Source of the DNA: a virus | Lineage: Duplodnaviria; Caudoviricetes | Virus record (IMG/VR): IMGVR_UViG_3300003969_000010 | Coordinates: 1-37,288 of that record | Length of the DNA stretch: 37,288 bases | Strand: one strand, 5' to 3' | Part shown: positions 20,181-35,998 of the stretch, one piece after another | Position numbering within the stretch: the stretch's first letter is position 1 | Layout of the letters: each line of letters begins with the position of its first letter | The notes under the pieces: model-generated | The model's database searches: none | The model's input: only the letters and a program-made list of their open reading frames with translations | What the model was told of the DNA's origin: nothing | Program-made: the position numbers and the translations under genes

Positions 20181-20507
20181 CTAGGACTTGATGATTTCCC
20201 ACAGCCGGGTTTTGCTCAGGCCGTAGCGGCGCTCCAGGAGCGGGATGCGCTCGCCGTGCTGCCAGTAGTCGCGCTTGATAGCCAGGTTGCGCGAGCTGGT
20301 GCCGTCGCCCGCGCGGTGGGCAATATAGGGTCGATCCCCAGCCCAGGCTTGGCGCTTGGCGTGTTTGATTTTTTCCAGCTCGGCCTGGAACTGGGGAGCC
20401 ATGGCGATGACGGCGGCAAAGATGTCCTCAATGATGTCGTTCTCATGCACCTGAGCGGCGGGCTTGGCAGCGGCTGGGCGTGGCTTGCTGTCGGGTTTGG
20501 TCACCAT
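20181..20507 (-). CDS. Mor/C-family transcriptional activator-like protein
   Basis: G.RPYI...RN.AI.RD...G..I..L.RRYGLS..R.WEII C-terminal HTH pattern of the Mu Mor/C family. Confidence 0.7.
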   Translation of the reverse strand: MVTKPDSKPRPAAAKPAAQVHENDIIEDIFAAVIAMAPQFQAELEKIKHAKRQAWAGDRPYIAHRAGDGTSSRNLAIKRDYWQHGERIPLLERRYGLSKTRLWEIIKS

Positions 20508-22513
20508 GATGGCCTTGATGGAGTGCGAGGTTGAGAGGGGCGGGATAACGGGGGGCGCGGAGTGGTTTTTTGCGCCCGTGGAACTGCTTGCAATTGCTGC
20601 AAGGCCGGTGGCTCTGTGGGTGTTGCGGGTTCTTGTTTAGACTCTTTTGGATCCGGTGGTGCCACTTCGTCTGTCTGCTGCGCTGGCAGCTCGCTGGCAA
20701 ATAGATTGATTTGATTTGGGTTCAGGGCAGCCGCCAACTTCTCCCAATGCGGCTCAGTGAGTTTGTGCAGCCCAAGATAGTGCGCTGCCGATGTGTTGTA
20801 GACCATTAAGTCCAGGGCTTCGTTGCGGTCGGCCTGCTTTTTCTCCCAACGGCTTACTCGGTGGCCATGCTTCCAGAGGGTCACCCGGTATTCAGCGGTG
20901 ATCTGCTTGTAGAAATCCTCGGTGAGGTCACTACTAAAGTGGATTTGGCCAACGCCTGTTTTTACGCGCCAGCGGTTTGCAAGGTAGTCTTTGGCGGTGT
21001 CGGTCCCAACAAACCAAAGCTCTGCGCCATGCGGCTCTACCCGACCATTCCAGCGCACCTCTACTTTGCTAGGCTTGCTGCTAAGAATGGGGCGGCCTGG
21101 TCGGCTTGCGCCCTTGATGGCGTAGATGTGGCGGTGGCGCCGGATTCTGGTGTAGTTGTAAACCTCTTGTGTTGCATTTCCACCAGAGTCCACAAATGCA
21201 CAACGAATGGGCATTGTTTGGCCGTAGGCATGGGAGTAGCGGGCTTGTAGTTTTTCATCCAATTGCCGCCAGGTGGCAAGGTCAGCTGGGTCACCGCGGA
21301 TTATTTGGTAGTCAACAACCCACGCCTCCATTCCGCGCCCCCAAGCAATCACCAGCATCTCAAGCCGATCAGCCTGCGTATCAACGGCAGCAGTCAGGAC
21401 CAAGCCAGCGGCTGGGACAAAGCCAAGCTTGTAGGGCTCGGCTCGGGCCAGCAATTCATCGGCCTTGGTTTGCTCTTTTTGGCGCTCCCAGCTCTTGGCA
21501 AGTCGCGTGTTGTAAAAAGCAATCATGGCTTCCTCAGAGCCCTCATCCAGTTTGGCTTTGGCCTTTTTGTACTCACGCATCAGCGCAATCCACGGCAGCC
21601 AGCCGTACGGCAGAAACATGCCGCTGATAGTGAAGCTCTCCGTCTCGCCATCGCCACCCACCCCATCAGTCCACGCGCCACGGGCAAACATGCGCGGCTT
21701 GTCGCTCTCGGTGTGAATGCCGCCGCAATGCATGCAGGGGTAGAGGGCCGCCTGTCCATCCTCACTGGCAATCAAGCGCTCAAAATCCATCGTCTGAGCC
21801 TCACCACAGTGCAGGCAATCGGCCAAAGCTTGGCGCTGGGTGCCGCGCAAATACAAGCGCTCAACAATACTTTCGTCTTTGATGGTGGGAGAGCTGGGGA
21901 AGTAGCTTTTTCGGTTTCGCTCGAACGTAGTCTGCCGGGCCTCGGCCAACGCCACCGGGTCACCCTCCCCGTTCACATTCAGTTCGGCTCGGTCTACCTC
22001 ATCAAACAGAACGCGCCGAGCAGGCACCTCGGACAAGTTGGCAGCGGCACCGGCGGTCACAATGAAAAGGCTGCCGCCTGTGTACTCTTTGGTTTCTAGG
22101 GTGTTGACGCTATCGCGGCTGCGTGGAGCAGCAACGCGCTCGGCTACCTCTGGCACGGCTGCAATGTTTTTGGCAATACGGGTACTGGCACGCTTGGCGA
22201 GCTTGCCGGTGGGCAGGATCCACAGAAAATTAGCTGGGCTCTGGTGGATGCTGGACATGAGCCAGTTGAGCCCGGTCTGGGTCTTGAGCATCTGGCTGGC
22301 ACCCATCAGCACCACGCGCTTGCAAGGATGGTGATCGCTAAGTGCTTGCATCACCATGCGGGCGTGCGGGGTACGACTAGTGCGAAATTTGCCGTACTCA
22401 TTGGCCCCAGAGTCTTTGGGAATGACCTGGTACGTGTCTGACCATACATCAACGGGCAGGTCTGGATCAGGCTCCAAGCTGGCAGCCAGCGACTCGAGCG
22501 GGTGCAAACTCAC
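20501..22513 (-). CDS. terL: Terminase large subunit, GpA family
   Basis: RTPH, ASQMLKT (Walker A variant), VLFDE (Walker B), SSPT, CxxC pairs, nuclease AVDTQ/DSGG/NEALD. Confidence 0.95.
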   Translation of the reverse strand: MSLHPLESLAASLEPDPDLPVDVWSDTYQVIPKDSGANEYGKFRTSRTPHARMVMQALSDHHPCKRVVLMGASQMLKTQTGLNWLMSSIHQSPANFLWILPTGKLAKRASTRIAKNIAAVPEVAERVAAPRSRDSVNTLETKEYTGGSLFIVTAGAAANLSEVPARRVLFDEVDRAELNVNGEGDPVALAEARQTTFERNRKSYFPSSPTIKDESIVERLYLRGTQRQALADCLHCGEAQTMDFERLIASEDGQAALYPCMHCGGIHTESDKPRMFARGAWTDGVGGDGETESFTISGMFLPYGWLPWIALMREYKKAKAKLDEGSEEAMIAFYNTRLAKSWERQKEQTKADELLARAEPYKLGFVPAAGLVLTAAVDTQADRLEMLVIAWGRGMEAWVVDYQIIRGDPADLATWRQLDEKLQARYSHAYGQTMPIRCAFVDSGGNATQEVYNYTRIRRHRHIYAIKGASRPGRPILSSKPSKVEVRWNGRVEPHGAELWFVGTDTAKDYLANRWRVKTGVGQIHFSSDLTEDFYKQITAEYRVTLWKHGHRVSRWEKKQADRNEALDLMVYNTSAAHYLGLHKLTEPHWEKLAAALNPNQINLFASELPAQQTDEVAPPDPKESKQEPATPTEPPALQQLQAVPRAQKTTPRPPLSRPSQPRTPSRPSW

Positions 22514-24031: not shown

Positions 24032-24307
24032 TCAGAAGAGTTGCACTGATGAGCCCAGCTTTGACACCGTGCTGCAGCTCGGCTTCACTGAGTCGGGTGC
24101 CGAGGCGTGCACGCTCAGCAAACCAAGAATCACGGATCGAGGCGGGCTCAGCTTGTAGCGGGCTATCGCCGCCAACATCGCCGCTGCACGTGCCTTGTCC
24201 GGCCTGGTGGAAGCCACCAATCGGGCGCAACATGGGGCGCATGCGAAGTTGTAGACGCCGCAAAGCGGGTTGGCTGATGTGGCCTGACATTGACGACATA
24301 GGCTCAT
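24032..24307 (-). CDS. Cys-rich hypothetical protein
   Basis: CxxC...CxxCC; ATG overlaps the stop of the replication gene. Confidence 0.55.
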   Translation of the reverse strand: MSLCRQCQATSANPLCGVYNFACAPCCARLVASTRPDKARAAAMLAAIARYKLSPPRSVILGLLSVHASAPDSVKPSCSTVSKLGSSVQLF

Positions 24308-25344
24308 GCTCCTGCTGTTTCATGCTGCGACTCAAGCGCCAGGCGCACCCGCTCGGTGTAGGCCGAAAACAACTCCTGCACCGGGCTACCGCACCACATG
24401 CCAAGCCCAAGCCGAACCCCCGTGGCCTCGATGCTGGGCCGATCGTGGTCCCACTGCACAGCCCCAGGAGCAGGCACGGAAGACAGCCCAGCCGCATCCG
24501 ACAACTGACCCGCCAAAACCCCGACGGCATAGGCAAACCCCTTGCCCTTGGCTACACTTTTTGCAGCAGCATCCCCAAAGGCAGCAGGGGAAACACCCTT
24601 GTCGATCAACGCCAACAACTCTGGATGACCAACCGCTACACCTGGCAAACCTGCCCTCGCCATCGCTTGCACCGCATGCTGAGCCGGAGACAGCTTTGGG
24701 CTTTCGGCTGTTGAGTTATCCACAGCACGCGCTTGCGATTTGGGTGCTGCACCCCCTCGACCTCGCGGCAGAGATAGGTGCGTGTTGTTTTGAGACGGAG
24801 ACGGAGACGGAGACGGAGACGGAGACGGAGACGGAGACGGAGACGGAGACGGAGACGGAGACGGAGACGGAGCATTGCTACTTTGATGCTGCTTGTCTGC
24901 TACTAGCATGCTAGTAGCATTGCTATTAGCATTGCTGTCAGCATTCCTACTAGCAGCAAACTCGGGAACAAGTCGATCAGCCTCAGCAGGGCCGTGATGG
25001 CGCTTAGCAGCATTCCAGCGAGCCTTAGCACTGCGCATATCAGCACCAGCGGCCCACGGGTTATGCTCATGCCAATCGTGCAAAACATAACGACCATCTA
25101 CCCTGTCCAAAAACCGAACCTCGGTCAAAGCTGCTACAAAAACACCCTCATCGCCCGCCCAATCCGAGGCCAGTTCGATATCTTCCTCAGACATTCCTCC
25201 CAGGTCGCCATCGCTGCGATTTGCGGCAGACCACAAGATCAGACATACCAGATTCCAGGCCGCAGCCTGCCCAAGGCGCTTAATCAGCTTCTTGGTCTTG
25301 GGGTGAGTCGGCAAACCAACCGCCAAGCGTGCGTCAACTGCCAT
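24304..25344 (-). CDS. Replication initiator, lambda O-like
   Basis: HPKTKKL, LHDW.EHNP N-terminal domain, internal iteron-like repeats, SP linker; position after the CII-like gene. Confidence 0.75.
   Translation of the reverse strand: MAVDARLAVGLPTHPKTKKLIKRLGQAAAWNLVCLILWSAANRSDGDLGGMSEEDIELASDWAGDEGVFVAALTEVRFLDRVDGRYVLHDWHEHNPWAAGADMRSAKARWNAAKRHHGPAEADRLVPEFAASRNADSNANSNATSMLVADKQHQSSNAPSPSPSPSPSPSPSPSPSPSPSPSPSQNNTHLSLPRGRGGAAPKSQARAVDNSTAESPKLSPAQHAVQAMARAGLPGVAVGHPELLALIDKGVSPAAFGDAAAKSVAKGKGFAYAVGVLAGQLSDAAGLSSVPAPGAVQWDHDRPSIEATGVRLGLGMWCGSPVQELFSAYTERVRLALESQHETAGA
24792..24872 (+). repeat. Perfect hexamer tandem repeat (GAGACG)x13.5, encoding (PS)13
   Basis: Counted directly: 81 nt with no mismatches. 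Confidence 0.97.
24871..24948. other. Putative replication origin (iterons and palindrome)
   Basis: AGCATTGCT at 24871, 24916, 24928 and AGCATTCCT at 24940 (12-bp period for the last three); perfect 22-bp palindrome at 24898-24919. Confidence 0.6.
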
Positions 25345-25722: not shown

Positions 25723-26096
25723 GCTGTGATCCCTGCCTGGCGCATCAGTGGCGCCAACTGAGCCAAGATAGGCCCCAGCTGCGCCATCGCCTGCGCCTGG
25801 GTGTTGGCCTTGTCCTGCAGAAACTTGTCGATCAGGTAGTGGATGGGCGTCACATCGCCCGTCTTGCTGATGTAAGACTCCAGGCTATCCACGCTGAAAT
25901 GGCGCGTAGCGTCCTCCGACAACTCAACGCTCAAATTACCCGGCGCCTTGTTTAAATCGATGGCCACACGGCCCAAACCACGCTGGTAGACACCACTAGC
26001 CACGCAATCGCGCAGACTCAAATGCCGCTCAGCCAAGCCCGGCTCAAACACCAGCGTGAGCTGGTTGTCAGGGGGCGTGATAACTCTTGATTTCAT
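25719..26096 (-). CDS. CII-like regulatory protein
   Basis: QLTL.FEPGL..., VAIDL...PGNLS..L, TGD.TPI.YL; position downstream of cro. Confidence 0.6.
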   Translation of the reverse strand: MKSRVITPPDNQLTLVFEPGLAERHLSLRDCVASGVYQRGLGRVAIDLNKAPGNLSVELSEDATRHFSVDSLESYISKTGDVTPIHYLIDKFLQDKANTQAQAMAQLGPILAQLAPLMRQAGITA

Positions 26097-26229
26097 CGTG
26101 TATCACTCCTTATCAGCCATGTACAAAAAAATAGAGACATGGAAAACACCACCACGAAAAATGCGAGCTCCCCCAAAGGCAGACAATGGGAGCTTCTCAC
26201 CACCACCAACGCCACCACAGGGGGAACTC

Positions 26230-26445
26230 ATGCAACTTTTGAATCCACGCATCACCATCCAGAACACCGACACAGCGGAATACCTGGTCACCGTGGAACA
26301 CAACTTCTCGGACACAGAGCGCATATCTCTCACAGTGCGCGTGGATCGGCAGGCGCAGACGCTTGCACAGATTCAGGGCGCGGCAGTAAAGAAGAGCTTG
26401 GAACTGCTGACCTTGCTCGATCACAGTCTCGACTCCCACAAATAA
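26230..26445 (+). CDS. Hypothetical protein (71 aa), oriented against the cro operon
   Basis: GGGGGAACTC RBS before ATG 26230; protein-like sequence MQLLNPRITIQ... Confidence 0.55.
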   Translation: MQLLNPRITIQNTDTAEYLVTVEHNFSDTERISLTVRVDRQAQTLAQIQGAAVKKSLELLTLLDHSLDSHK

Positions 26446-26540
26446 CCATCTGGCAGGCATCAGCGATCAAGGTCACGTCAACCAACTGGCAGGTGGCCGA
26501 GCAACTAACTTCAGACAATGAAGGAACTCGACTAGTCACT

Positions 26541-26756
26541 TCAAACCCCTCGGGCCGGTTCTGGCATGTAAATGTCATTGAACGTCAGCACATGACCCAG
26601 ACTAGCGGCGTAATCGATCAAGCGCCTGGCCACGTCGGGCGGCATGCCCTGCCCACGCTCGTAATGCCCCACGTTACCCTGCGTGCAGCCAACGCCCTTG
26701 GCCAGTTCAGTCTGGGTGACTCCCAGGCGGGTTCGGATTGCTTTGATGTTGCTCAT
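26541..26756 (-). CDS. cro: Cro-like HTH repressor (71 aa)
   Basis: IRTRLGVTQTELAKGVGCTQGNVGHYERG XRE-HTH; divergent from cI. Confidence 0.88.
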   Translation of the reverse strand: MSNIKAIRTRLGVTQTELAKGVGCTQGNVGHYERGQGMPPDVARRLIDYAASLGHVLTFNDIYMPEPARGV

Positions 26757-26762
26757 TACCTC

Positions 26763-26830
26763 ATTATGAGTGGCACTGATAATCAATGTCAACATTGGCG
26801 CTGTTATTTTTTTATAACAGTTGCGGTGAT
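26763..26830. promoter_or_regulatory. OR-like control region: three 15-bp operators and the cro promoter
   Basis: ATGAGTGGCACTGAT (26766), AACATTGGCGCTGTT (26791), AACAGTTGCGGTGAT (26816), spaced 25 bp; minus-strand TTGACA (26792-26787), 18 nt, CATAAT (26768-26763). Confidence 0.75.
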
Positions 26831-26839
26831 GATTTAGAT

Positions 26840-27244
26840 ATGGTCAACAAACCGAGAAAAGCCAAGGTCACACCGGAAACCATTGCGGAGTCGAAGAAAC
26901 TCAAAGAAATCTGGGACGCACAGGAAAAGCGGCCGTCTCAAACAATTTTTGGCGAAACCTATCAAATCGGCAGTCAATCAGCGGTAACGTCGTTTCTGAA
27001 TGGGAAAACGCCGCTGAGCCGAAAGGCGGCCAAAGGTTTCGCCGCTGGCCTTGGATGCAAAGTTTCCGACTTCAGCCAGCGCCTCGCTGCGCTTGAAACA
27101 ACATGGCCTTTTGAGCTTGTAGACCGGGAGCTGTACGACGCACTAAGCCCCGCGCTACAGCACCGCGCCCAGTTGCGCATGAACGACGAGATTAAGCTGA
27201 TTTTTGATGAGCAAGCCATCAGGGCAAACGGAACCAGCAATTGA
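26840..27244 (+). CDS. cI: CI-like repressor, no S24 peptidase domain (134 aa)
   Basis: Lambda-CI-like N-domain (LKEIW...SQ...SQSAVTSFLNG..PL......FA..LGCKVSDFS.RLA) with a short C-terminus. Confidence 0.82.
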   Translation: MVNKPRKAKVTPETIAESKKLKEIWDAQEKRPSQTIFGETYQIGSQSAVTSFLNGKTPLSRKAAKGFAAGLGCKVSDFSQRLAALETTWPFELVDRELYDALSPALQHRAQLRMNDEIKLIFDEQAIRANGTSN

Positions 27245-27328
27245 GGTTGCCCTTTAGACCTTACCTTGCCTGGAGCCGCCCTGTAAATCCCCCAAACGGG
27301 TGAAATTAGTACAACTATGGGAGACAAC

Positions 27329-28114
27329 ATGTGGATTTTTTTGCTGTTTATTGCTGCAATAGTGGCTTGGTTGTTGCTAAAAAAACAAGGCGCACCCATG
27401 CCTCAAGCAACCCCCAAGATCGCCACCAGTTATTCGGCACCACAACACGAAGCCCAAGACAAAGACGCTTGGGAGGGCGCGTTCTATGACGTTGTTACCC
27501 AGCACAGTATCAACAAAAGCGTTCGTCTGCGCTACATTGATACGCATGACAACGAGAGTGAGCGCGTCGTTGACATCCGGGCTTTCGAGCCGGACCGGCG
27601 CGATGGGTTAGTCATTGCGTATTGCCACCTAAGAAATGCCACGCGCACCTTTCGGTTTGACCGCATGAAACAGGTAATTGACATGGAGACCGGGGAGATC
27701 ATCCCCGACCTTCAAGCGCAACTCAATGCCGAATGGAAGGCTTCACCTGAGCCCATACTTGATCAGTTGTACCGCGAGCACCACGACGTGCTCAAGTTAA
27801 TGCTCTACATGGCCAAGGCGGATGGATCGGTGCGGTCTGCAGAAATTGGTGTGATTGCGCGCTATTGCCAAGACATTACAGGCGATGCCCGCATTACGGC
27901 TGAATTGATAAAGAATTTGCTCAAGACGGTGGATGTGGTAACGATGACCACATTTACACGGGTGTACAACAAGCTGCGAAGAGAGCGGCCTGACGATGCA
28001 ATTAGAGCGGCGGATGCTTGCCGGGCCATTGTTGCCACGCAAAAAACTATTCACCCCAACGAGCAAGGGGCGCTTGATATTCTGGACAAGCCACTACCAC
28101 GCACCCCAGCATAA
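27329..28114 (+). CDS. Membrane-anchored protein with WYL-like and TerB-like domains
   Basis: N-terminal TM (WIFLLFIAAIVAWLLL); LRYID...SERVV...AYCHLRNATRTFRFDRM (WYL-like); LYMAKADG.V.SAE (TerB-like); GGGAGA RBS. Confidence 0.75.
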   Translation: MWIFLLFIAAIVAWLLLKKQGAPMPQATPKIATSYSAPQHEAQDKDAWEGAFYDVVTQHSINKSVRLRYIDTHDNESERVVDIRAFEPDRRDGLVIAYCHLRNATRTFRFDRMKQVIDMETGEIIPDLQAQLNAEWKASPEPILDQLYREHHDVLKLMLYMAKADGSVRSAEIGVIARYCQDITGDARITAELIKNLLKTVDVVTMTTFTRVYNKLRRERPDDAIRAADACRAIVATQKTIHPNEQGALDILDKPLPRTPA

Positions 28115-28123
28115 GGAGCCACC

Positions 28124-28387
28124 ATGGGCGCACTGCACTTTCTAGACCTTGATCCATTGCCTGACGCTCTGCGATCGGGCACAGTTCACCACCTGGAGTT
28201 GTATGAGACAGGGGGCGAACTGTTTATCAAGGTATCGCTAGCGGCACCTACAGGACATGACCAAGCCTACTGCCAAGACCAAACACCTTACACCGCACCA
28301 ATCACAGCATCAATGCGGGTAACCACCACCCAATTGGTGCAGATTGAGCGTGCGATGGCTGAATTACGCGCCCGTATAAGCGCTTAG
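28124..28387 (+). CDS. Hypothetical protein (87 aa)
   Basis: AAGGAG RBS; follows the WYL/TerB-like gene in the same orientation. Confidence 0.65.
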   Translation: MGALHFLDLDPLPDALRSGTVHHLELYETGGELFIKVSLAAPTGHDQAYCQDQTPYTAPITASMRVTTTQLVQIERAMAELRARISA

Positions 28388-28915
28388 CCAATGGCGCGCT
28401 GCCAGTGCATAGACTGCCATGTCTAGCTGCGGCGCGTCTAGGAGATGGCTAGGAAAGCAAGAGCTTAGCTCTGCCTGCATGGCTGCCACATCAACAAAAT
28501 ACACGGTAAACGACTGAGGGTGCACTACACCACCTTCATTAACGTCAACTAAGCGGGCGTGCATGGTTTCTTTACTTACAACCCCGTTAGCGAACCCTTT
28601 AACTGCAAGCAACCTCGGAAGTCCGGCGTTTTGATGCTGCATTACAAACCTGCAAACCTCGTGGGAAAAGTGGCCACCGCTGTCAATAGCTGCCGCTGAC
28701 ACTGGCATGCACGTAACCCCGTCCACACACACGGGTCTGGAGAGCTCGAACAACAACCGTTCCCACGGTATGGGCTGACGCGTATCAAAAAGCAAACGCA
28801 CACTACCAACACACATCGCGCCACTGCCGCCAAAAACCCAACAGCAAACATCTATATGGCCATGGCCCACTTCAACACCCGCGCAAACGCGCAGTTCTTT
28901 GCCAACAAATTTCAT
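28364..28915 (-). CDS. Stand-alone degenerate paralog of the GpA terminase nuclease domain (183 aa; alternative start 28936)
   Basis: Collinear motif matches to the C-terminal domain of terL in this window (see findings). Confidence 0.8.
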   Translation of the reverse strand: MKFVGKELRVCAGVEVGHGHIDVCCWVFGGSGAMCVGSVRLLFDTRQPIPWERLLFELSRPVCVDGVTCMPVSAAAIDSGGHFSHEVCRFVMQHQNAGLPRLLAVKGFANGVVSKETMHARLVDVNEGGVVHPQSFTVYFVDVAAMQAELSSCFPSHLLDAPQLDMAVYALAARHWLSAYTGA

Positions 28916-28961
28916 AAAACCCCCGTCCGGCGACATGCCGGTATAAATATTTTAATCAAAT

Positions 28962-29004
28962 ATCAGTGGCACTGTTGACATAAAATATAATTGCCACTAA
29001 TAAT
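28962..29004 (+). promoter_or_regulatory. OL/PL-like region: two operators and an early promoter
   Basis: ATCAGTGGCACTGTT (28962) and ATAATTGCCACTAAT (28987), 25 bp apart, matching the OR consensus; TTGACA at 28975-28980 with TAATAAT at 28998-29004. Confidence 0.75.
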
Positions 29005-29044
29005 TCACTCCAACCCGCCACATTTCGGCGGAAAGGAGTGAAAA

Positions 29045-29542
29045 GTGCAAACCACCACAATTCAGCGCAGCGAGGTCGAAGCGCTTCTCTACCGGGCGGC
29101 CACTGGCCTACTGGGTAACTTAGCTTTTGAGGCCGAGCGCAAGCACGACACTTACGACTTTTGGCAGGGCTATGCCAAAGCCCTGCGTGATCTGCAGCGC
29201 GGCGCTGGCCAAGGTCTGGCAGACAAAGATGCAGCGCTAGGCGGCTATCAGGGCGGTGGCATATTCAGGGCTGCAGCCCGTGTCTTGGGTAATGACCTCT
29301 ACGATTTGCCCCGTGCTGAGGTTGCGCAGCGCATAGCAAACGCTGGAATCAAGTTCTCCTTGCATGCGGTGTCCGATTGCGATGAGGCTGCCGCCTTGGT
29401 GGTCATAGACGGTGCAGTCGCCGCCATCGATTTGCACGACGAACATCCCATTTCGTTGGTTGATGCGGACGATAGTTCCCTTGACCAGCATGCTTTCTCT
29501 CCCGTTGATGCGGCCATTGTGGCGCAAGGCGGTGCAGCGTGA
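29045..29542 (+). CDS. First gene of early operon, hypothetical
   Basis: AAGGAG RBS, GTG start, GTGA coupling to the next gene; the 3' half overlaps an antisense ORF. Confidence 0.55.
   Translation: MQTTTIQRSEVEALLYRAATGLLGNLAFEAERKHDTYDFWQGYAKALRDLQRGAGQGLADKDAALGGYQGGGIFRAAARVLGNDLYDLPRAEVAQRIANAGIKFSLHAVSDCDEAAALVVIDGAVAAIDLHDEHPISLVDADDSSLDQHAFSPVDAAIVAQGGAA
29237..29491 (-). CDS. Hypothetical beta-rich protein (84 aa), nested antisense
   Basis: GGAGAG RBS before ATG 29491; MLVKGTIVRINQRNGMFVVQIDGGD... reads like a small OB-fold-type protein. Confidence 0.55.
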   Translation of the reverse strand: MLVKGTIVRINQRNGMFVVQIDGGDCTVYDHQGGSLIAIGHRMQGELDSSVCYALRNLSTGQIVEVITQDTGCSPEYATALIAA

Positions 29543-32973: not shown

Positions 32974-33573
32974 ATGAGCCACAACCTCACAATTCCAGTG
33001 ACCGCCTCCCTGAAGCTGGAGCTGGACAGTCCATCCAACGAGCTGCTGGCCCTGCTGCAGCGCATGCAAGGCGGCAATGCCGCGCCAGCCGCAGAGCCAC
33101 TGACCGGACAACAAACACCACCAGCGCACGGCGAATACTGGACCAACCAAGGCGGCCACTACATCTGCACCCTGCCCGCACTGATGGGCCTGCCCGCGCG
33201 GCACCTGATTGCCGGCAAAGAGCAAACCAAAGCCACATTTGGCCCCTACGAAGAAGTTACCGGGTGCAGCAGCCATATCGACGGCCCTGCCAACACCAAG
33301 GCATTGCTTGCCCACGGCGGCCACCCTGCAGCCCAATGGGCCGCAGCGCACACCGCAGACGGCCATAGCGACTTTCACCTACCCGCCAAGCTGGACCTGG
33401 TGATGGCCCACATCTGCGCCCCCCAGCTCTTTGACAAAGAGGGCTACTACTGGACCAGCACCCAGCTCAGCCGCGGCAGCGCCTTTGTTCAGGATTTTGA
33501 GCTCGGCAGCTCAGGTTGGAGCTACGAGGGCTACGAGCACAGGGTTCGAGCCTTCCGCTGGATTCCACTTTAA
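32974..33573 (+). CDS. DGR target protein 1 (DUF1566/CLec-fold-like, 199 aa)
   Basis: DG.ANT, GHSDFHLP, YWTSTQ, RVRAFR motifs; VR1 at the C-terminus. Confidence 0.9.
   Translation: MSHNLTIPVTASLKLELDSPSNELLALLQRMQGGNAAPAAEPLTGQQTPPAHGEYWTNQGGHYICTLPALMGLPARHLIAGKEQTKATFGPYEEVTGCSSHIDGPANTKALLAHGGHPAAQWAAAHTADGHSDFHLPAKLDLVMAHICAPQLFDKEGYYWTSTQLSRGSAFVQDFELGSSGWSYEGYEHRVRAFRWIPL
33460..33558 (+). repeat. Variable repeat VR1
   Basis: 99-bp ungapped match to TR; 15 mismatches, all opposite TR adenines. Confidence 0.96.
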
Positions 33574-33596
33574 CGCTTGACCACTTCACCCCTTAC

Positions 33597-33611
33597 ACCG
33601 GCGCAGCCGGT
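33597..33611 (+). other. Post-VR1 hairpin ACCGGC-GCA-GCCGGT (putative homing element)
   Basis: 6-bp perfect stem with a 3-nt GCA loop; identical copy after VR2; not found after TR. Confidence 0.8.
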
Positions 33612-33641
33612 TCGTTTTTAATTTTAACCAGGAGCAACTTT

Positions 33642-34157
33642 ATGAAACCTCACCCCATCACCCTCCCGGCCTTTGGAGCCCTTATTCCAGGCCAAGGCGG
33701 CTACTTTGCCGGCATTCTGCGCGGCCCCACTGTGGACGGTATTGAACAGCCGCCGTATGCCCTGCTGGTGTCAGACACCACCAAAGGCGAGTTTGAGGAT
33801 GTGCAGTGGGGCGAGTACGGCAAAAGCCTAGATGGCGCCATGCACCGCACAGACGGCAAGGCCAACACCAAAGCCATGGCGCAAGCGAAATGCCCTGCCG
33901 CCCTCAAGGTGCGCGACCTCACCATAGACGGCCACAGCGACTGGTATCTGCCAGCCCTAGGCGAAATGAACACCGCCCACGCCAACGTGCCCGAACTTTT
34001 TAGCACCAGTGGGTGGTACTGGACTAGCACCCAGCTCAGCCGCGGCTTCGCCTTTGTTCAGGATTTTGAGTACGGCGGCTCAAGTTGGAACCTCAAGGAC
34101 AACGAGCGCAGGGTTCGAGCCTTCCGCCGGGTTCAACTTGAACTCTTGAACGCTTAA
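33642..34157 (+). CDS. DGR target protein 2 (DUF1566/CLec-fold-like, 171 aa)
   Basis: AGGAG RBS before ATG 33642; paralog of target 1 (GQGGYF, DGKANT, GHSDWYLP, YWTSTQ, RVRAFR); VR2 at the C-terminus. Confidence 0.9.
   Translation: MKPHPITLPAFGALIPGQGGYFAGILRGPTVDGIEQPPYALLVSDTTKGEFEDVQWGEYGKSLDGAMHRTDGKANTKAMAQAKCPAALKVRDLTIDGHSDWYLPALGEMNTAHANVPELFSTSGWYWTSTQLSRGFAFVQDFEYGGSSWNLKDNERRVRAFRRVQLELLNA
34029..34127 (+). repeat. Variable repeat VR2
   Basis: 99-bp ungapped match to TR; 13 mismatches, all opposite TR adenines. Confidence 0.96.
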
Positions 34158-34167
34158 ACCCTTTAAC

Positions 34168-34182
34168 ACCGGCGCAGCCGGT
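34168..34182 (+). other. Post-VR2 hairpin ACCGGC-GCA-GCCGGT
   Basis: Identical to 33597-33611. Confidence 0.8.
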
Positions 34183-34202
34183 TCGCTCGATTTTTTGACA
34201 CC

Positions 34203-34577
34203 ATGGCAATCTACTCCGAACTCCCAATTTACAAGCACGGCTGCGACCTGTTGGCGCTGGCGCTGGATGTCCAAGTCCAGATGCCTCGCGCCTTTAAGCG
34301 CACCCTCGGTGAAAAAGTTCACGCCTTGTGCGTGGACATGCTGGAGCAGATGGCCATGGCCAACGCATCGCGCGGACTGGACAGGCTGGAGCAAATTGAC
34401 AAGCTGCTGCAACACCTGCGCGCCGCCACCGCCATGCTGCGTGTGAGCCACGACAAGCGGCTTATCTCACCCAAGCTATGGGCGGCATCCGTTGAGCTGC
34501 TGGACGCCGTTGGCGCACAGGCAGGCGGGTGGCGCAAGCAGACTTTGGCAACTCTTTCCGCAGCGCCTGCTGCATGA
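34203..34577 (+). CDS. avd: DGR accessory variability determinant (four-helix bundle)
   Basis: 124 aa, LPIYK...L, MPR.FK.TLGEK, C-terminal GGWRK; located between the targets and TR/RT. Confidence 0.85.
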   Translation: MAIYSELPIYKHGCDLLALALDVQVQMPRAFKRTLGEKVHALCVDMLEQMAMANASRGLDRLEQIDKLLQHLRAATAMLRVSHDKRLISPKLWAASVELLDAVGAQAGGWRKQTLATLSAAPAA

Positions 34578-35998
34578 CGGTCAAGGCCATCATGCCCGTG
34601 CGTTTAATGAATCCGGTCGGGCCGCTGCAGCCGTCCTTGTTTGACGACTGCACCGCCATGCGCACCACGGAGACCGGCGAGCCCCAGCAGCTCGCGCTTT
34701 GGTCCGGCGCAGTTTCCGGGCCCATCGGCGCAAGCCTTGAGCCCGGCGATGTAGATTGCCCGAACGAACCCAGAACAGCCGCAACAACGCCTTTGTTCAG
34801 GATTTTGAGAACGGCAACTCAAATTGGAACAACAAGGACAACGAGCACAGGGTTCGAGCCTTCCGCGGATTCATCCGCCCCGCCCAGCTGGGGTGGGGCA
34901 CCCTTTACTATTGAGCAACTGGTGCAAGCCTGGCTGGACTGTAGACGCAACAAACGCCAAAGCGATAGCGCCCAAGCTTTTGAGGCCAATGCCGAGGCCA
35001 ACCTGTGCGCACTGCGCAACGAGCTGCTAGACGGCACCTACAGCCCAGGCCAGAGCACCTGCTTTGTGGTTACACGGCCCAAGGTACGCGAAGTGTGGGC
35101 GGCCGACTTTAGAGACCGCATCGTGCACCATTTGCTCTACAACCACATTAGCCCGCGCTTCTACGCCAGCTTTGTGCATACCAGTTGTGCATGCATACCC
35201 GGCCGGGGCACGCTGTATGCAGCACAGCAGCTTGAGCACGGCGTGCGCTCCATCACCCAAAACTGGAGCCAACCCGCCCACTATTTGAAGATGGACTTGT
35301 CCAACTTCTTTGTGGCGATTGACAAAGCCACCTTGCGTGCGCAGCTGGCAAAGAAAGTGACAGAACCATGGTGGATGGCACTCACCGAAACCATACTGAT
35401 GCACGATCCACGCAGCCATGTGCAAGTGCGCAGCAGCGCCGATCTGCTGGCACAGGTGCCAGCACACAAGAGCCTATTTAACGCACCAAACGCCACTGGC
35501 TTGCCCATTGGGAACCTGAGTAGCCAGTTTTTTGCCAACGTGCACCTGGACGCGCTAGACCAGTTTTGCAAACACCAGATAAGGGCGCGGCACTACGCTC
35601 GCTACGTGGACGACTTTGTGCTGCTGCACCAGAGCCCACAGTGGCTAAACGCTGCGCTCGAACGCATTACAGCCTGGCTGCCAGAACACTTGGGCGCACA
35701 GATAAACCCACGTAAAACGATTTTGCAGCCCATAGCCCGCGGCGTGGACTTTGTTGGCCATGTCATCAAACCATGGCGCCGCACCACCCGACCGCGCGCC
35801 GTACGCACCGCCTTGCAGCGCCTGAGCTCCATGCCTGCCGAAGATGTATTTACAGCGGGAAATAGCTACCTTGGGCTGCTAACCCAAGCCACACACAGCC
35901 AACAAGACCGCGCCACCGTAGCCAAAGTGCTACTGGGGCGCGGCCACGCGGTTAACCATGAATTGACCAAGATTTACAGGAAGAAGACTAAAAAATGA
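34574..35998 (+). CDS. DGR reverse transcriptase (start uncertain)
   Basis: PK.REVWAADFRDRIVHH, YLKMDLSNFF, GLPIGNLSSQFFAN, RYVDDFV, GVDFVG. ATG at 34574 overlaps the avd stop; the conserved core begins near 34900. Confidence 0.93.
   Translation: MTVKAIMPVRLMNPVGPLQPSLFDDCTAMRTTETGEPQQLALWSGAVSGPIGASLEPGDVDCPNEPRTAATTPLFRILRTATQIGTTRTTSTGFEPSADSSAPPSWGGAPFTIEQLVQAWLDCRRNKRQSDSAQAFEANAEANLCALRNELLDGTYSPGQSTCFVVTRPKVREVWAADFRDRIVHHLLYNHISPRFYASFVHTSCACIPGRGTLYAAQQLEHGVRSITQNWSQPAHYLKMDLSNFFVAIDKATLRAQLAKKVTEPWWMALTETILMHDPRSHVQVRSSADLLAQVPAHKSLFNAPNATGLPIGNLSSQFFANVHLDALDQFCKHQIRARHYARYVDDFVLLHQSPQWLNAALERITAWLPEHLGAQINPRKTILQPIARGVDFVGHVIKPWRRTTRPRAVRTALQRLSSMPAEDVFTAGNSYLGLLTQATHSQQDRATVAKVLLGRGHAVNHELTKIYRKKTKK
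34768..34866 (+). ncRNA. DGR template repeat (TR)
   Basis: Adenine-rich master copy: 8 AAC and 1 AAT codons in the VR frame, 32 adenines in 99 nt. Confidence 0.95.

Follow-up and report, generated by a model that had tools for sequence, protein, structure and literature searches.

Why would a temperate phage that encodes a complete terminase large subunit (TerL) also keep, in its immunity region, a free-standing copy of the nuclease half of that protein? The window analyzed here, a whole viral record of 37,288 bases, represents a temperate phage with an integrase gene at its right end and a control region of lambdoid type, whose elements are named after their presumed lambda counterparts (cI, cro, cII, PL, PRM and OL) on the basis of position and weak HTH matches. 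Its own intact GpA-type terL (20501–22513, minus strand; 670 aa, ATPase plus nuclease) lies next to a terS-like gene and the portal gene. At a distance of 5.85 kb, an ORF of 183 aa (28364–28915, minus strand, ATG to TAA) encodes P0003, the protein considered here; this gene and its relatives are referred to as minis. The original prediction had described it as a degenerate terminase nuclease domain about 6 kb from terL and divergent from PL, and the ORF indeed points away from a PL-like promoter. We infer a Comamonadaceae host because the closest cII-like relative among genomes (61%) sits in an Acidovorax MAG. The P0003 protein is recorded once, on a 102-kb contig, which suggests that the phage is an integrated prophage.

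The mini belongs to the GpA nuclease family. It scores above the cut-off of 22.5 bits on Pfam PF20454 (GpA_nuclease), at 38 bits (E 1.4e-9), a significant profile match whose absence would have spoken against the original prediction, and matches the TerL profile phrog_15 with E 5.8e-8; other minis reach 62–80 bits against PF20454 in six of six cases tested. Similarity to the phage's own TerL alone is weak in pairwise BLASTP (29 bits), and a PDB sequence search with the mini returned nothing below E 0.38. All six motif pairs quoted earlier as shared with the C-terminal domain of that TerL are nevertheless present, collinear and in register, and the frame is open, yet highly diverged (22% identity), as had been noted. 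The ATPase domain is absent, as claimed: the 183-aa protein has no PF05876 match, and the DNA upstream is a promoter region. An alternative in-frame ATG exists at 28936, upstream of 28915; the latter is the likelier start, because a conserved hairpin contains the former, which in a second locus described below is not in frame. Models predict that the RNase H-like fold is kept: an AlphaFold2 model, built from a 15-row alignment including three full-domain rows, has a pLDDT of 89 and a pTM of 0.87, and an ESM Atlas model has a TM score of 0.82 to a GpA TerL. The best viral structure matches of the mini model are TerL proteins (E 1.1e-8), and its matches among solved structures have RNase H-like folds, with sugar kinases on top (Z 11.0), RuvC 4ld0 tied with them (Z 10.1, rmsd 3.8, 133 aligned) and terminase nucleases at Z 8.0–8.6. 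Homodimer predictions scored 0.00 in two runs whose controls were not folded, and they count neither for nor against binding.

Stand-alone relatives, for which the original prediction had proposed to search, do exist. A whole-library phmmer search with the mini gave 17 matches, including short full-length relatives at 48%, 39% and 37%, and two profile searches covering near-length forms gave 17 clusters, cut at 90% identity, with 40 sequences of 170–232 aa (mostly 170–192). Pairwise identity among minis has a median of 35% (range 22–88%). For 15 clusters the term stand-alone derives from the proteins' own N-termini, shared deletion and constant within-cluster length, while genomic context was at hand for two of the 17; P0035, P0027 and P0045, for instance, lie on contigs of 40.6, 29.6 and 28.3 kb. 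Against 48 TerL nuclease domains the minis form one clade in a quick tree (SH-aLRT 100), and the clade recurs on 155 shared columns when TerL is thinned to 34 rows (raw-tree support 100/100 on a branch of 0.73; a value of 81.8/92 printed with this tree is a label displaced by re-rooting). The 48-row set includes one row (L164, genome G147) that was left out of the rate, 155-column tree, charge and control-region comparisons and on which none of the conclusions depends. Thus, the trees point to a monophyletic mini family with a single origin, to which signal long-branch attraction may have contributed. Descent from this phage's own terL was rejected, given the 22% identity and the separate clade, and phrog_3028 was rejected as the profile of the family, with only 13.9 bits. 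Since P0008 and P0011 both retain the region deleted elsewhere, they were not counted as minis. P0008 (236 aa, on a 1.8-kb contig) carries the mini-type CAGVDVLADR signature together with the helix and the Glu; its hairpin is shortened, and the protein stops after the last helix. It may be an intermediate between TerL and the minis. In addition, P0013, P0018, P0027–P0031 and P0035–P0037 share an N-terminus of the M-T-D-E-K-K-P-P-Q type which, judged from the protein, appears to resemble an A-tract and GC stem, that is, an opposite-strand terminator read as codons.

Several lines of evidence support the view that the mini is a maintained gene and no pseudogene. The mini tree is 10.4 substitutions per site long, over 17 lineages that keep length, fold core and invariant residues. 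The GC content of the mini by codon position is 0.64/0.44/0.52, and its other five frames contain 5–12 stops. When the ORF was mutated at random points in 1000 simulated runs, the frame stayed open in 1.5% at 48% identity, 0.5% at 35% and 0.1% at 25%, which is supportive rather than decisive, as databases show only open frames. That same bias could favor a decaying terL fragment without function, as could the long end branch of P0003, which has the most eroded first loop of the family, and the rarity of minis (one in 69 related viral loci, and none among 73 matches in 401 genomes). With length, core and invariant residues held in 17 lineages, and with such codon-position composition and stops in the other frames, we regard decay as very improbable; neutral decay in the homologs, raised in the original prediction as the outcome that would count against it, was not the pattern found in this family of open-frame genes.

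What, then, has been maintained? The catalytic residues D401, D465, E586 and D589 of lambda gpA map to Glu15, Asp78, Pro162 and Asp165 of the mini. Accordingly, P0003 has two of the three catalytic Asp: the first position (own TerL D378) is Glu15 (codon at 28871–28873, minus strand), which bears out the earlier observation of an Asp-to-Glu change, whereas the second (TerL D442) and third (TerL D568) are Asp78 (28682–28684, minus strand) and Asp165 (28421–28423, minus strand). Pro162 stands in place of the Glu three before the last Asp, the counterpart of lambda E586, which we take to be needed for cos cutting. Across the 17 minis the first Asp is D in 14, N in two and E in one; it has changed in three minis on three separate branches against none of 47 TerL (Fisher p 0.016, with rows that are not independent). 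By site rate it ranks 37th of 155 positions in minis and third of 155 among TerL, and the valines on either side of it do not vary. The second catalytic Asp and Lys106 are kept in 17 of 17 minis, and the third catalytic Asp (in its column) in 15, as are Asp+4 and Arg+5, which are Gly19 and His20 in P0003. By contrast, no mini keeps the RNExLD Glu or the DxQ Gln, which are both invariant in all 48 TerL. Over the shared columns the median number of Lys plus Arg is 11 in minis versus 19 in TerL, and net charge is −6 versus +2; the rows are related, so that p-values for this comparison overstate the difference.

The minis have also lost a defined piece of structure. Between the last strand and the last Asp there are 10, 17 or 24 residues in the 17 minis, compared with 64–76 in the 48 TerL; for P0003 the linker is 24 residues versus 66 in the own TerL, so the 42 missing residues match the previous estimate of about 40 before the last helix. 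In a model of the own-TerL domain (pLDDT 93), the deleted stretch comprises a helix (H171–177) and a two-stranded hairpin (E180–197) directly before the last catalytic helix, and one more helix follows the latter. The stretch deleted in minis is therefore predicted to be the terminase hairpin, and minis lack both this terminase-specific hairpin and the C-terminal tail. The available text of studies on SPP1 and G20c describes such a hairpin as a terminase-specific element close to the active site, with a part in contacting DNA or in control (PMC2685612, PMC5389553). Taken together, the conservation pattern fits selection on shape more than on DNA cutting, and the mini is likely without catalysis, although three Asp persist in most of its relatives.

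The position of the gene suggests when it might be expressed. The mini converges on genes downstream of the cI-like gene: a WYL-TerB gene (27317–28114, plus strand), whose product has a hydrophobic N-terminus and contains WYL and TerB-like domains, and an ORF of 87 aa (28124–28387, plus strand), which overlaps the mini 3' end by 24 bp. A candidate mini promoter, TCAACA-18-TAAAAT (28949–28978, minus strand), is recognized as a motif with 9/12 consensus positions in AT-rich DNA, where a promoter scan found three sites versus 2.5 expected in shuffles. It stands back-to-back with a PL-like promoter, TTGACA-18-AATAAT (28975–29004, plus strand; 11/12). Its spacer holds a perfect 11-bp palindrome, CAGTGGCACTG (28964–28974), a putative OL operator and the only perfect copy in the window; less strict matches hardly exceed chance (47 vs 33). 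Operator-related sites of CAGTGGCACTG occur at 26768–26778, 26793–26803 and 28989–28999. The cI-side and mini-side control regions are in register, each with an operator-like site, TGTCAACA, an operator-like site and a −10-like hexamer, and the PRM-like site (26789–26817) has the candidate mini promoter as its mirror image. Upstream of the mini start lies a conserved 16-mer hairpin with a 5-bp stem (28927–28942), a putative terminator of cI-side transcription, although in the window it folds no better than shuffles (z −1.4). In a lambdoid locus that has no mini (L044), this hairpin sits next to PL, where it forms a canonical U-tailed terminator on the cI strand. Transcripts from the cI side may therefore extend across the mini in antisense.

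A second locus has a comparable arrangement. On an IMG/VR contig of 7.2 kb (L001), another mini, P0016, occupies the same place in the same orientation, and the contig ends short of its terL. The 16-mer is identical there, while three unrelated small genes, with no Pfam match, replace the WYL-TerB gene and the 87-aa ORF. The original prediction was right that the mini is a stand-alone copy of the nuclease domain, which now appears to be maintained, probably non-catalytic and no pseudogene, but its suggestion that the mini might be a component of the neighboring WYL/TerB-like system finds no support at this locus, where a mini sits at the same site without that neighbor. The operator in L001 is different, 14 bp long, and occurs twice at PL and three times at PR; one copy covers the mini −35 region. 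Because its pattern came from the very sites tested, the shuffle test is circular in part. At both loci whose context is available, then, an operator lies over a candidate mini promoter that is back-to-back with PL, and we infer that mini expression would be early-lytic and controlled by the repressor. As a separate observation, one protein among the cI-downstream accessory genes of L001 (1378–1653, minus strand) is small, has a signal-like N-terminus and no Pfam match, and presumably carries an HNH-like motif.

The mini travels in an exchangeable immunity cassette (26461–29005) with the cro-like gene, the cI-like gene, the WYL-TerB gene and the 87-aa ORF, because close relatives, whose flanks are mostly 95–99% alike, lack this segment and replace it by other DNA, which in one contig amounts to 2308 letters; none of the eight sequence runs compared covered the mini. 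Mini loci are rare. Among 69 cII-related viral loci, 48 of which had at least 3.3 kb upstream, one carried a mini. A scan of viral contigs with a single protein found no further mini locus, and an alignment-based scan found one, L001. A search of 401 family genomes (including G147), with eight candidates scored in each, gave 73 matches with no true mini seen; the best scored 98 bits versus 200–225 for true minis, none extended beyond model position 151 of 174, and 68 lay in frames of at least 433 aa, while one of the five short frames was inspected. In 67 genus genomes no mini was found at E 1e-30, in a search run without a positive control. Pattern scans of genomes and metagenomes produced 54 and 88 matches and no confirmed mini, a subfamily pattern found none in metagenomes, and the nine viral loci with a DSGG pattern were rejected as long TerL frames. 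The 16-mer hairpin occurred in 63 loci, nearly all by chance, with a mini only in L001 and a lambdoid immunity region in L044. Among the matches listed by tblastn against INPHARED and PLSDB, identity was at most 39% and the named ones were terminases; four of four minis had no match in NCBIfam and PADLOC.

We suggest, with a probability of about 40%, that the mini is an early-lytic, non-cutting mimic that binds defense proteins recognizing terminase. A shortened copy of the GpA nuclease domain, unable to cut DNA, would be kept repressed in the lysogen by the operator and released on induction, which fits an operator over a promoter back-to-back with PL. Made early in lytic growth, ahead of the real terminase, it would occupy host or co-resident defense proteins that recognize the terminase nuclease, for instance an Avs1/Avs3-like sensor or another terminase-binding defense protein. 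The narrower idea that a disarmed, phage-domesticated terminase domain acts as a PAMP decoy, occupying NLR-like sensors without firing them, is more tentative and somewhat unlikely. In support of a decoy, one clade of 17 clusters (40 sequences) has been maintained with its shape kept and its chemistry relaxed, and residues of the active-site face remain (Asp78 and Lys106 in 17 of 17; Asp+4, Arg+5 and the last Asp in 15). SeAvs3 recognizes active-site residues of terminase and binds the natively folded nuclease domain, according to the available text (PMC13601566), a mode of recognition that such a protein would fit. Segments for packaging partners, namely the N-terminal domain, the C-terminal helix and the portal tether as described in the accessible part of a lambda study (PMC9026076), are absent. 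However, several points argue against it. The ATPase domain, which activates EcAvs2 and Upx, is missing from the mini, and some nuclease domains suffice by themselves to activate KpAvs2 (both from the available text of PMC13601566), so that the mini could be a trigger and not a shield. The three Asp positions are still present in most minis, P0004 and P0013 among them (the first Asp in 14 of 17), which fits an enzyme too; P0003 has lost Asp+4 and Arg+5, part of the mimicked face, and is just 22% identical to its own TerL. The promoter is a 9/12 motif in AT-rich DNA, hardly above shuffles; the OR counterpart of its geometry is a PRM-like promoter, which would be active in the lysogen; and context covers only two of 17 clusters, with the L001 contig stopping before its terL.

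The kept active-site positions could also mean that the minis are active RuvC-like nucleases freed from terminase control, in which loss of the hairpin produced a small resolvase or a defense or exclusion nuclease. The three Asp positions and the Lys persist in most minis, and the deleted part is a predicted helix and β-hairpin before the last catalytic helix, whose SPP1 counterpart partially obstructs the catalytic site and does not occur in other RNase H proteins (PMC2685612, available text). RuvC is among the top solved matches (4ld0), but its tie with sugar kinases of the same fold indicates the fold only. The sources available on SPP1 (PMC2685612) and G20c (PMC5389553) describe the first Asp as essential, whereas in minis it is Glu or Asn on three branches, including P0003. 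In SPP1, moreover, H400, three before the last Asp, is required, and the isolated domain is inactive (PMC2685612, same parts), while the H400-equivalent residue is acidic in just four of 17 minis and the mini surface has turned acidic; on balance, an active nuclease is unlikely. A different role for a protein without catalysis would be that of a lysogen-expressed, dominant-negative inhibitor that, on superinfection by a GpA-type phage, would join the incoming terminase complex and prevent cutting or packaging. Between cI and PL, where the mini lies in its swappable cassette, is a usual place of exclusion genes such as lambda rexAB. The candidate promoter mirrors the PRM-like site; prophage blockers of packaging or assembly are known, such as TerI and Tai (the latter from the available text of PMC11364771); and lambda terminase protomers are proposed, in the part of the source available, to pair at cosN (PMC9026076). 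Yet the N-terminal domain, most of the distal helix proposed to mediate pairing and the portal tether are missing from the mini (PMC9026076, same part), the best operator lies inside its promoter spacer, a cI-side transcript would cross it antisense, and no cognate self-immunity gene is common to both loci, and an inhibitor of packaging is also unlikely.

The convergent orientation toward cI-side accessory genes in both loci would suit self-immunity or a tripwire, in which the mini neutralizes a convergent cI-side defense gene at induction, in the manner of Tai/Ati, or primes a host terminase sensor. Noncontiguous immune and counter-immune operons show such a convergent arrangement (PMC11364771), and nuclease domains can activate KpAvs2 (PMC13601566), both according to the accessible text, and the 87-aa neighbor is a weak look-alike of a WapI-like immunity protein. 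The neighbors are, however, unrelated between the two loci, which leaves no fixed partner, and lytic control would make a trigger harmful to the phage; this explanation is improbable. That the mini is a subunit of the adjacent WYL/TerB-like system is suggested by adjacency in the window, but the two genes are on opposite strands, three different small genes stand there in L001, the one further locus with context, and PADLOC found no match for four of four minis tested, so that we give this idea hardly any credence. For these reasons a decoy of early-lytic expression is the reading we prefer.

Compared with known systems, the minis resemble the GpA-type TerL nuclease domain (PF20454; lambda gpA and the own TerL) in profile match and motif order and share with it a predicted RNase H core and long internal hairpin. 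They differ in being free-standing, without ATPase, in a separate clade and located in an immunity region, in lacking the helix and hairpin before the last helix, the C-terminal tail and the invariant Gln and Glu, and, as a family, in their relaxed first Asp and acidic surface. RuvC resolvases are of similar size and have an RNase H-like fold without the terminase hairpin, but by sequence the mini descends from GpA TerL, and the catalytic set of P0003 is incomplete. T4 vs.8 and Ksap1/Ksap2 are stand-alone terminase-ATPase-like phage proteins that activate Avs2 (PMC13601566, PMC11564622, in the text available), and an anti-defense role for them was floated by their authors (PMC13601566, likewise). 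Like the mini, they are lineage-restricted, single-domain look-alikes of terminase with an open function; they copy the ATPase half and are proven Avs2 triggers in these accounts, whereas the mini copies the nuclease half and is known from sequence alone. TerI of a Listeria prophage and Tai/Ati are temperate-phage accessory genes acting on packaging or assembly, and Tai and Ati are paired under opposed transcription; in the available descriptions (PMC11364771 for Tai/Ati), by which we set them apart, derivation from terminase is nowhere mentioned, unlike for the mini. A literature search, with subscription papers largely outside its reach, found no description of stand-alone GpA nuclease paralogues or of a terminase mimic or decoy, and the main text of the EVADES preprint, as far as available, treats terminase solely as an Avs trigger. 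The mini family is thus real, a member of PF20454 but no terminase, and apparently undescribed; pipelines annotate its members as 'terminase large subunit GpA-like', which keeps it hidden. Terminase ranks among the core targets of bacterial pattern-recognition immunity, and a phage cannot easily alter it; if the decoy reading holds, minis would be the first described terminase-derived counter-defense family, a nuclease-side twin of vs.8/Ksap. They offer ready test proteins for whether decoys evade Avs-type sensors and for separating binding from activation, and they bear on the function of single-domain look-alikes of the vs.8/Ksap type. If instead they are nucleases, nature would have deleted the regulatory hairpin in them, and the family would put the SPP1 model of nuclease control to the test.

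Other features of the window deserve mention. The WYL-TerB gene is a candidate lysogen defense gene, short pieces of which occur in two other sequence runs, and the WapI-like resemblance of the 87-aa ORF has a score of 0.90, with recognition below the bar. Two small protein-like ORFs (29237–29491, minus strand; 26056–26445, plus strand) run antisense within early operons and have no notable Pfam, PADLOC or NCBIfam match. In a putative replication protein (24304–25344), a hexanucleotide-like repeat (24785–24878) encodes a (Pro-Ser)n run. Finally, a diversity-generating retroelement occupies 32974–35998 (plus strand), with a reverse transcriptase (34529–35998), Avd (34203–34577) and a template repeat (34768–34866); its variable repeats (33460–33558 and 34029–34127) form the ends of two tandem Lcl_C-like genes, so that its targets sit in the early region and not in a tail fiber.
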